NCBI RefSeq assembly: GCF_003790525.1
Contig: NZ_CP033635.1
DNA: 64,000 nucleotides
Reading direction: 5' to 3' (one strand)
Source of the DNA: Escherichia coli
Lineage (GTDB): Bacteria > Pseudomonadota > Gammaproteobacteria > Enterobacterales > Enterobacteriaceae
Numbering within the stretch: position 1 is the stretch's first letter; each line of letters begins with the position of its first letter. This document shows positions 21,849-23,302 of this stretch, one piece after another. The position numbers were made by a program, and so were the translations under genes. The notes below the pieces were generated by a model. The model had not been told where the DNA came from. It searched no databases and saw only the letters and a list, made by a program, of their open reading frames with translations.

Positions 21849-22863
21849 CGTTTTCCCTTATAATTACAGACGCGCACTAGCTGTGCTGAGTTAGCAATAA
21901 TCCAACATTTTAATCCTGATTATGTTTATAAAAGCGAACGTTTGCTTAATAACTAACGTAAGTGGACCAGTTCTTCTGAGCGAACTTAAATGGAGTAGCG
22001 ATAGTTACTTATAATAACTTTGCCATACAAACGCCATGCTCTTGCATGCTATGTACCTTTATATATTTATCAATCTGATACGAATCTAATAATAACCCTC
22101 ATCATTAATGCAACTAATCTTATCTATATATCATGTGATATGTTCTGTAACAAGTAAAATCAACATAAAAAATTCAGCAAAATTTAATATTCGTTCAACT
22201 AGCCGTCTCACATATGACATTATTAGTCAACTGCATTTGCCACAAAATGGCTATTTCATGGAACGCAGTTATTTCTTAGTGGCTATTATCATGCTAATTC
22301 TTAGGTCCCTAGCGATTATTCCTGCCTGGTTCATCAGCTTACGCCATGAGATTGTTACATTCCTTTTTATCCTGGAGATATGGGGGAACGCAGGAGATGA
22401 TTTTTTCATCTACATCCGTTGGTAAATATGGCTTTGGTCACTACGACTTAAACCTTCCTCAATCACAGCTATTCGCCGGGCGATACGGCAAACAAACTAA
22501 GTGAAACATCATCCTGAAAACACCAACATCAACAAGCCTCTCCAGATCGACATCAGGAGTGACCAGTTACAAACCACAAACCAAGAAACATATTTCATGA
22601 TGAGAATTATGCTCAGCCTGATGGCGGGTAAACCCTTATTATCACCAAGCTCACTGCGTTAGCTTGCAAAGCTTTCCTTGTTTAGATTCTAAATAAAATT
22701 TTTATAAAACAGATAGTTAAAAGAAAATCTTTAGTTTTTTGAAGACCACCGCAAGTGTTCGTCTGGCTTCACATGGCATCTTCTTCTTAGAAAAAGATCG
22801 ACATATTTTGTGACACGAATTGCAAATCTGGTTTTGTTGTATGGATTGCGTGATTTTTGATCT

Positions 22864-22884
22864 GGTATAACAGGTATAAAGGTG
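22864..22884. promoter_or_regulatory. GGTATA-repeat NanR operator-like site in the nanC-fimB intergenic region
   Basis: ggtataacaggtataaaggtg: tandem GGTATA hexamers as in NanR operators, about 440 bp upstream of nanC. Confidence 0.5.
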
Positions 22885-23302
22885 CACCACGATAGTCAAT
22901 GAGACTGGGCATCTCGTAATCTATGGCAAACATCACTTCAGTTCTTTCTCATCGGGTGATGAAAACGCACTTCAGTCAGAAAGGAATATGAAAATGAGAT
23001 CAACAGACACTCTATTTTATGACTCTGGGTAAAATGAATTGAGTAAGTGATATAGCTTACGAACATTCAAATCAATTAAACATCAGAATAGATTTTATAC
23101 TCAGGTATTTAATCTGGCTCTCTGTTTATTTAAATAATGTGGAAAGAGAATTTTCACAGGAGACCTTATACAAAAAATATAAAATACAGCTACTCGTTGC
23201 CAAAGACACTATAAGCCTGGCAAAAAATATTACACAACATAAATGCTAATTGTTTATGCGGGCTTTGTATTGCTTTCTGTATCCTACAAATGAGTGAAAT
23301 TT

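Follow-up and report, generated by a model that had tools for sequence, protein, structure and literature searches.

In the 64,000-nucleotide stretch of Escherichia coli DNA analysed here (the window), the genes fimB, which acts in fimbrial switching (21246-21848, minus strand), and nanC, which encodes a sialic-acid porin (23303-24019, plus strand), point away from each other and are separated by a gap of 1454 bp, at positions 21849-23302. Beyond fimB, which flanks the gap on the left, lies fimE (20172-20768); on the other side nanC, whose ATG is at 23303, is followed by nanM and nanS. The open reading frame listing begins nanC slightly upstream of this ATG, at an in-frame GTG at 23294. A truncation of nanS, suggested by flags in the RefSeq annotation, was considered and rejected, as its reading frame in the window has its full length and shares 96% identity with K-12 NanS. 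Over the 3 kb compared, the window is identical base for base to E. coli SMS-3-5 (NC_010498). The counterpart of the gap in K-12 MG1655 (4539502-4540956) measures 1455 bp, is about 96% identical and has no annotated feature inside. More generally, no gene is annotated inside the gap in 11 RefSeq genomes (K-12, SMS-3-5, 702/18 and eight others). The G+C content of the gap is 35.8%, versus 47.0% for the whole window, a value as low as this being found in only 1.5% of windows of the same length, and the gap is also the largest stretch of the window without open reading frames of at least 150 amino acids. Accordingly, the description offered by an initial sequence-only reading, that of long, AT-rich, non-coding DNA between divergent fimB and nanC, is borne out: the boundaries are exact, the composition is as given above and the identities of the genes match K-12. 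The positions of the regulatory sites discussed below are taken from later papers that cite the original work (El-Labany 2003; Sohanpal 2004, 2007; Condemine 2005; Kalivoda 2003, 2013), combined with our own mapping.

A NanR operator, predicted from sequence identity with K-12, occupies positions 22864-22886 on the plus strand and has the form GGTATA-ACA-GGTATA-AA-GGTGCA. Specifically, two perfect GGTATA hexamers (22864-22869 and 22873-22878) are followed by a degenerate third one, GGTGCA (22881-22886), the spacers between the hexamers being 3 nt and then 2 nt long. The sequence-only reading had placed a GGTATA tandem repeat at 22864-22884. The repeat itself stands, with its two perfect hexamers, while its end point has to be moved, since spacers of 3 and 2 nt bring the end of the operator to 22886. 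The alignment with the K-12 nanC-fimB region, which had been proposed as a check, leaves the operator unchanged: all 23 of its 23 bases are those of K-12, the identity extends for more than 60 nt in the fimB-proximal direction, and the first difference downstream is found five bases past the operator end. The pattern GGTATAN3GGTATAN2GGT, searched with up to 2 mismatches, has 2 matches in the window, compared with 0.04 expected. The other match is a second NanR-type site, GGTGTAATAGGTATAAAGGCATA, at 58255-58277, which precedes a remnant of the nanC 3'-end and a nanM-like fragment that shares 94.5% identity with nanM. This fragment, annotated in RefSeq as a frameshifted partial Kelch-repeat gene, lies beside a type II Zorya system, and a large defence-type island is located between nanS and the nanC/nanM remnant.

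NanR operators are defined by direct-repeat GGTATA hexamers (PMC3658417, PMC8012715). The interval 22864-22886 contains at least two such hexamers 2-3 nt apart, and lacks the three perfect hexamers, (GGTATA)3, present at nanA. The degenerate third hexamer is found in all ten E. coli genomes aligned, the window and K-12 included, and GGTGCA is thus a trait of the nanC/fimB operator generally and not of one strain; a divergent lineage, 'E. coli E69', has GGTACA in its place. In vitro, an oligonucleotide with two GGTATA repeats is bound by NanR with a KD of 25 nM, near the value for three repeats, although the number of complexes is limited to two. In other words, two repeats suffice for NanR in vitro, so that the degeneracy of the third hexamer does not stand in the way. 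Moreover, genomic SELEX recovered NanR on the K-12 nanC/fimB spacer. A Dam GATC site (22859-22862) precedes the first hexamer by 1 nt, a distance within the 5 bp of GATC sites at which NanR is known to bind (PMC5155068).

The operator would also be part of the nanC promoter. By homology with nanA, a putative -10 element, TATAAC, is located at 22866-22871 on the plus strand and forms part of the first hexamer. Should this be the true -10, the nanC transcript would start near 22878 and carry a leader of about 425 nt. The homology with nanA is extensive. The local alignment of the regions upstream of nanA and nanC covers 46 nt and scores 55, the maximum among shuffled sequences being 27. A block at 22838-22863 (plus strand, TGTATGG...TTGATCT), which takes in the Dam GATC at 22859-22862, is shared with the nanA promoter, and a 27-nt run, TTGATCTGGTATAACAGGTATAAAGGT, is identical in the K-12 nanA operator, which continues with ATA where nanC continues with GCA. 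As at the nanC/fimB operator, a GATC adjoins the first hexamer of the nanR-nanA operator. In addition, a by-eye reading places a pair of CRP-like half-sites about 49-50 nt upstream of TATAAC at both loci; near nanC this is the motif TGTGA-N6-TTGCA at 22809-22824, read by analogy with nanA. The two modules differ in their third hexamer, which is GGTATA or GGTACA at nanA and GGTGCA at nanC/fimB, and in their distance from the gene: for about 50 of 62 scanned loci the nanA ATG follows after 35-39 bp, against 417 bp for the nanC ATG. They differ, furthermore, in distribution. The query GGTATAACAGGTATAAAGGTRYA, run against a single genome of each species, returned these 62 loci. About 58 of them correspond to the nanR-nanA operator and are spread over numerous genera (Enterobacter, Citrobacter, Rahnella, Kluyvera, Raoultella, Buttiauxella and Atlantibacter among them), whereas the fimB-linked type was found in Escherichia only, at 2 loci. 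A BLAST match of 53 bp at 90.6% identity to query positions 983-1035 (window 22831-22883), in a genome without any longer match, may be the nanA promoter. Taken as sequence comparisons, these data suggest that the fimB-linked operator and promoter block appears to be an Escherichia-restricted paralogue of a widespread nanA module.

On the fimB side of the NanR operator, the gap carries two NagC operators, ONC1 ('fimB1', 22802-22824, minus strand, TGCAATTCGTGTCACAAAATATG) and ONC2 ('fimB2', 22589-22611, minus strand, CATAATTCTCATCATGAAATATG). Both are given as 23-mers in the FITBAR paper (PMC3098098), and each matches its published sequence exactly and is unique in the window, the chance expectation for such 23-mers being zero in 64 kb. 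ONC1 overlaps the CRP-like motif described above and is accompanied by a Dam GATC at 22796-22799. The two operators were also recovered independently by a repeat finder (families D2 and D11), the other repeats detected in the region by this search being short two-copy chance matches only. The distance between them is 213 bp, in agreement with the spacing of about 212 bp that was looked for, and it is kept in 10 of 10 aligned genomes apart from 1-bp indels.

According to what is reported of the work of Sohanpal in 2007, IHF binds midway between the fimB NagC operators. The exact IHF consensus has no match in the region, where candidates with 1-2 mismatches only were found. Among them, a candidate site at 22707-22719 (plus strand, AAACAGATAGTTA), with 2 mismatches to WATCAANNNNTTR, lies roughly midway between the two operators. 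Its core has G at 22712, versus A in K-12, which amounts to one extra mismatch. Two 23-bp NagC operators also cooperate at nagE-nagB, chb and glmU, and looping of the DNA by cooperatively bound NagC has been described for these operons and for fimB alike. The loops of nagE-nagB, chb and glmU repress the promoter that they enclose, whereas the fimB loop would activate a promoter located about 470 bp further on.

The fimB end of the gap contains the promoter of the gene, its leader and a silencing module. The 5' untranslated leader of fimB is 271 nt long in K-12 (Moores et al., PMC3911127), which would correspond to 21849-22119 on the minus strand, with a transcription start at about 22119. Several elements described in that study can be placed on this leader. 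The target of the MicA sRNA, at -9 to -46 from the fimB ATG, maps to 21857-21894 (minus strand) and adjoins the Shine-Dalgarno sequence AAGGGA. The ops-like element (OLE), about 180 bp before the ATG, is found at 22025-22036 (minus strand, TGGCGTTTGTAT) as an exact match to the published sequence, and the SphI site that served as a deletion end-point lies at 22044-22049. A further deletion, starting at -277, was described as 'immediately adjacent to the -10' of the fimB promoter (PMC3911127). In line with this, the sigma-70 promoter of fimB is predicted at 22125-22153 on the minus strand, with TTGTTA (about 22148-22153) and TATATA (about 22125-22130) as the probable -35 and -10 hexamers, separated by a 17-nt spacer. 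A consensus promoter scan gave 3 matches, versus 6.5 in shuffled sequences, with 0 on the plus strand, and missed the fimB promoter itself because its -10 is without the final T, which makes the scan uninformative here. Further upstream are the two SlyA operators, OSA1 (22286-22297, minus strand, TTAGCATGATAA) and OSA2 (22301-22312, minus strand, CTAGGGACCTAA), both exact and both overlapping H-NS sites. In K-12, the SlyA operators are located 167-194 bp upstream of the fimB start, H-NS protects DNA from about -500 to +150 relative to the same start, and SlyA counters H-NS at the fimB promoter without involvement of NanR or NagC (McVicker et al., PMC3173223). The published distance of the SlyA sites provides a cross-check of the start at about 22119. 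Indeed, OSA1/OSA2, the 271-nt leader and the MicA distances are mutually consistent, in agreement with the published fimB control module. Measured from 22119, ONC2 is 470-492 bp away, ONC1 683-705 bp and the NanR operator 745-767 bp; the published range is 470-760.

Of 5426 complete E. coli genomes, 5020 carry at least 80% of the gap at a single location, most copies being 95-99% identical and only 17 at least 99% identical. The window was further aligned with K-12 and with eight genomes chosen to span the range of identities. Across these ten genomes no variation was seen at 22119-22159 (the fimB promoter stretch), in ONC2 or in the GATC next to the NanR operator; a single base is changed in ONC1 and one in the NanR operator, both in strain F11 only; the SlyA sites and the OLE have one variable position each, in a minority of the genomes. 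The MicA target is conserved except at 21889, which is A in the window and G in 8 of the 9 others. The divergent lineage 'E. coli E69', which supplied one of the 2 fimB-linked loci of the species scan, is 79% identical to the window over 1061 bp and gives a footprint. Here the segment 22795-22886, comprising a GATC, ONC1, the promoter block and the NanR operator, is 97% identical, and ONC2 is 91% identical, whereas the flank of ONC2 on the fimB side falls to 55%, the spacer between the NagC operators to 64% and the segment 22887-22945 to 59%. The binding sites thus stand out as islands of 91-97% identity against 55-64% in the neighbouring spacer. Inside the 64% spacer, 12 of the 14 bases at 22707-22720, which include the candidate IHF site, are kept. 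The E. coli genome collection was also searched for this divergent lineage in order to carry the footprint over to the fimB side, and nothing closer than 84% was found.

All these features are those of a well-described region. In K-12, ONR, ONC1/ONC2 and an IHF site have reportedly been assigned to it by El-Labany (2003), Sohanpal (2004, 2007) and Condemine (2005). The window shares with the K-12 nanC (yjhA)-fimB region its genes and their orientation, and the NanR, NagC, GATC, SlyA, OLE and promoter sites are identical. The differences from K-12 amount to about 55 substitutions and indels, mostly in spacer, and include the A that the MicA target has at 21889 and the G at 22712. Since the system and its defining sites are the same as in K-12, the region has to be considered as already known. 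We can conclude with high confidence that the gap is the fimB-nanC divergent regulatory region, by which the phase switching of type 1 fimbriae is tied to two host-derived amino sugars, sialic acid and N-acetylglucosamine (GlcNAc); no feature of the sequence speaks against this. The coupling of nanCMS and fimB expression to sialic acid, already proposed from the sequence, agrees with the published K-12 system, of which every checkable site is kept.

The presence, the spacing and the conservation of the sites are observed in this DNA. Their mode of action would follow the K-12 literature, from which binding, the sign of each effect and the positions at which transcription begins are borrowed. 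In the absence of sugar, NanR, whose gene is not part of the window, would occupy 22864-22886 and NagC would occupy 22802-22824 and 22589-22611. The two NagC operators would probably loop the intervening DNA, with IHF bound between them. In this state, NanR and NagC would repress the adjacent nanCMS promoter and, at the same time, raise transcription from the fimB promoter at a distance of about 470-770 bp. The fimB promoter would otherwise be silenced by H-NS, and de-silenced by SlyA bound at 22286-22312. Following the appearance of sialic acid, NanR would be released, GlcNAc-6-P having the same effect on NagC. As a consequence of these releases, nanCMS would be induced, fimB expression would decrease and FimB-driven OFF-to-ON switching would decrease with it. 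An additional layer of control may be operated by MicA, acting post-transcriptionally through the 271-nt fimB leader. As the NanR operator, the NagC operators and the probable IHF site act together, the NanR operator does not work alone.

A different question is whether the length of the region has a meaning. According to one explanation, the 1.45 kb consist for the most part of dispensable, H-NS-bound, AT-rich spacer derived from the acquisition of fim and nan, only the short sites matter, and the length as such is without function. Several observations are in keeping with this explanation. The most variable segments among the aligned E. coli genomes, 22349-22398 (20 variable columns) and 22649-22748 (38 columns), are spacer, in which variability reaches up to 23 columns per 50 bp and a 12-bp indel is found at 22367; in the divergent lineage, moreover, spacer identity falls to the 55-64% reported above. 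Insertion sequences are tolerated: in strain 702/18 the gap is identical apart from an ISKpn26 inserted at TTAG 22659-22662, separating ONC2 from the ONC1/NanR cluster, and an IS1 is inserted in the gap of NZ_OW968288.1. The coverage by H-NS, which begins about 500 bp upstream of the fimB start and reaches 150 bp past it, points in the same direction, as do the deletions in the fimB leader, which raise expression. On the other hand, the 213-bp spacing of the NagC operators is maintained apart from 1-bp indels, and the roughly 360 bp beside nanC are 86% kept in the divergent lineage, so that part of the length cannot drift freely. A purely passive spacer is a possible but rather unlikely account of most of the gap, and one that would complement the regulatory reading and not exclude it.

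The segment of about 360 bp that escapes this drift, 22946-23302 on the plus strand, deserves separate consideration. Between the 59% of the preceding stretch and the 95.5% of the nanC coding start, its 86% identity in the divergent lineage marks it as a conserved nanC-proximal segment; in the ten E. coli genomes it has mostly 1-4 variable columns per 50 bp. It is visibly constrained, judging from these comparisons, and probably represents the last 360 nt or so of the long nanC leader. Among the roles that such a segment could have are those of a platform for OmpR/CpxR, whose control has been reported, of a small-RNA target or of an attenuation leader. Two short reading frames of 10 and 14 amino acids (about 22959-23037) were considered as leader peptides and rejected, most of the differences in the divergent lineage altering the amino acid when inspected by eye. 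We advance only tentatively the proposal that 22946-23302 is an uncharacterised cis-regulatory element and, separately, that the operator block is an Escherichia-restricted duplicate of the nanA module that would have wired the fimbriae to sialic acid.

The great length of the two leaders, 271 nt for fimB and probably about 425 nt for nanC, and the conservation of the latter could also be taken to mean that an unannotated structured RNA, either a small RNA or a riboswitch-like leader, is the main regulatory device of the region in place of the protein operators. This seems very improbable: no Rfam match at E <=1 was obtained across 20000-25000, the folding of the fimB leader (z = +0.54) and of the putative nanC leader (z = -0.91) resembles that of shuffled sequences, neither value being unusual, the terminator scan returned one weak site, not above shuffle expectation, and the K-12 annotation lists no non-coding RNA here, though FimR2 is listed nearby.

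Finally, the small open reading frames of the gap had been judged probably non-coding, and this judgement is upheld. The main candidate, a 105-amino-acid frame (ORF105, 22108-22425, plus strand), is judged non-coding. It is open in the window and in 3 of the 9 other genomes, and frameshifted or stopped early in the remaining 6, K-12 included, where it is frameshifted. The resulting products measure 73, 88, 105, 131 and 135 amino acids, with a C-terminus that varies in frame and length and with substitutions that are mostly non-synonymous. A slight third-position excess (7, 7 and 15 variable sites at the three positions), taken at first as a coding signal, vanished when the translations were read. 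No Pfam match at E <=1 was found for ORF105, and none of the five frames scanned reached the threshold. In the databases, copies of the gap frames carry 'hypothetical protein' names only, from E. coli and Shigella; ORF105, whose inspected cluster members all come from E. coli, is so called on hundreds of contigs, and one of the gap frames, EcSMS35_4837, was present in the original SMS-3-5 record and is gone from the current RefSeq annotation. ORF105 is also missing from the curated annotation of K-12, where small proteins like YthB do figure, and from 10 PGAP annotations, and it runs antisense over the fimB start, the mapped promoter and the SlyA/H-NS sites. Only 1 of the 10 gap frames of at least 30 amino acids is intact in all ten genomes, a 45-amino-acid frame with a TTG start at 22020-22157; its intactness is uninformative, because it lies in the nearly invariant DNA of the promoter and leader. 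That ORF105 or this short frame encodes a real protein, so that the region would not be purely regulatory, is hardly credible, and the gap frames are, by these comparisons, chance frames in AT-rich regulatory DNA.

The preferred interpretation, that of a divergent regulatory region linking fimbrial switching to amino sugars, adds no new biology to the published system, and documents that a genome of the SMS-3-5 lineage keeps the complete set of published sites. Two small additions are, to our knowledge, not made explicit in the literature consulted, namely the apparent paralogy with the nanA module and the constrained 360 bp next to nanC. The coordinate map and the conservation footprint reported here may guide work on the distant activation of fimB and on the nanC-proximal segment. 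Here regulators act on a promoter located about 0.5-0.8 kb away, and in the biology of E. coli the region is a textbook example of how a commensal or pathogen responds to signals of host inflammation, sialic acid and GlcNAc, by turning down an adhesin that provokes inflammation.

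The intergenic region between the divergent fimB and nanC genes (21849-23302) is interrupted by insertion sequences in some strains. In strain 702/18 (locus L002), an IS5-family element, ISKpn26 (4815-6010 of the locus), has inserted at a TTAG corresponding to window positions 22659-22662, with a 4-bp duplication, and apart from this element the intergenic region has the same sequence as the window. The insertion falls between NagC operator 2 (22589-22611) and the cluster formed by the IHF-like candidate site (22707-22719), NagC operator 1 (22802-22824) and the NanR operator (22864-22886), thereby displacing this cluster about 1.2 kb farther from fimB. 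In addition, NZ_OW968288.1 carries an IS1 within the fimB-nanC region.

Smaller variants were also observed. At position 21889, corresponding to mRNA position -41 and located inside the published MicA target in the fimB leader (21857-21894), the window carries an A in place of the G found in eight of the nine other genomes compared (K-12 and eight sampled E. coli). A 12-bp insertion, TCAGACTGTGTA, at 22367/22368 is shared by LS4 and the urine isolate F11; it lies about 250 bp upstream of the fimB start, where the intergenic region is most variable.

The nanC-upstream region of L030 (CP089930.1, deposited as 'E. coli E69') is 79% identical to the window, and no match above 84% identity was obtained among 5426 complete E. 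coli genomes; this genome probably represents a cryptic Escherichia lineage. The same locus served as the outgroup for footprinting. L014 (CAUHML010000277.1), a 3.3-kb contig of a metagenome-assembled genome named 'uncultured Bacteroides sp.', shares 97% identity with the E. coli fimE-fimB-nanC region and is therefore a binning contaminant.

On the other side of nanC, the nanS genes of SMS-3-5 (NC_010498) and 702/18 are annotated in RefSeq as incomplete pseudogenes lacking the C-terminus. The nanS ORF of the window (25183-26190) is full-length, with 96% identity to K-12 NanS across all 326 aa, and the pseudogene flag is probably an annotation artefact. A large defence-type island (about 28330-62900; SMS-3-5 4904527-4939101) is located between nanS and a nanM-like remnant. 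It encodes three giant DEAD/DEAH helicases, a SAM-dependent DNA methyltransferase (4.9 kb), a UvrD-like helicase and a member of the STY4851/ECs_5259 family, followed by a type II Zorya system, zorA2-zorB2-zorE (about 54672-58145), and by genes for an HNH endonuclease, a restriction endonuclease acting on phosphorothioated DNA and a protein with a JetD domain.

A second NanR-type operator, GGTGTAATAGGTATAAAGGCATA, is present on the plus strand at 58255-58277, with spacers of 3 and 2 nt as in the operator at 22864-22886, and is accompanied by segments at 58290-58355 and 58356-58853. Downstream of it lie a remnant of about 40 nt of the nanC 3' end and then a nanM-like fragment, which shares 94.5% identity with nanM and is annotated in RefSeq as a partial, frameshifted Kelch-repeat pseudogene. 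Taken together, the operator and these remnants look like a decayed paralogous copy of nanC-nanM that has retained its operator.
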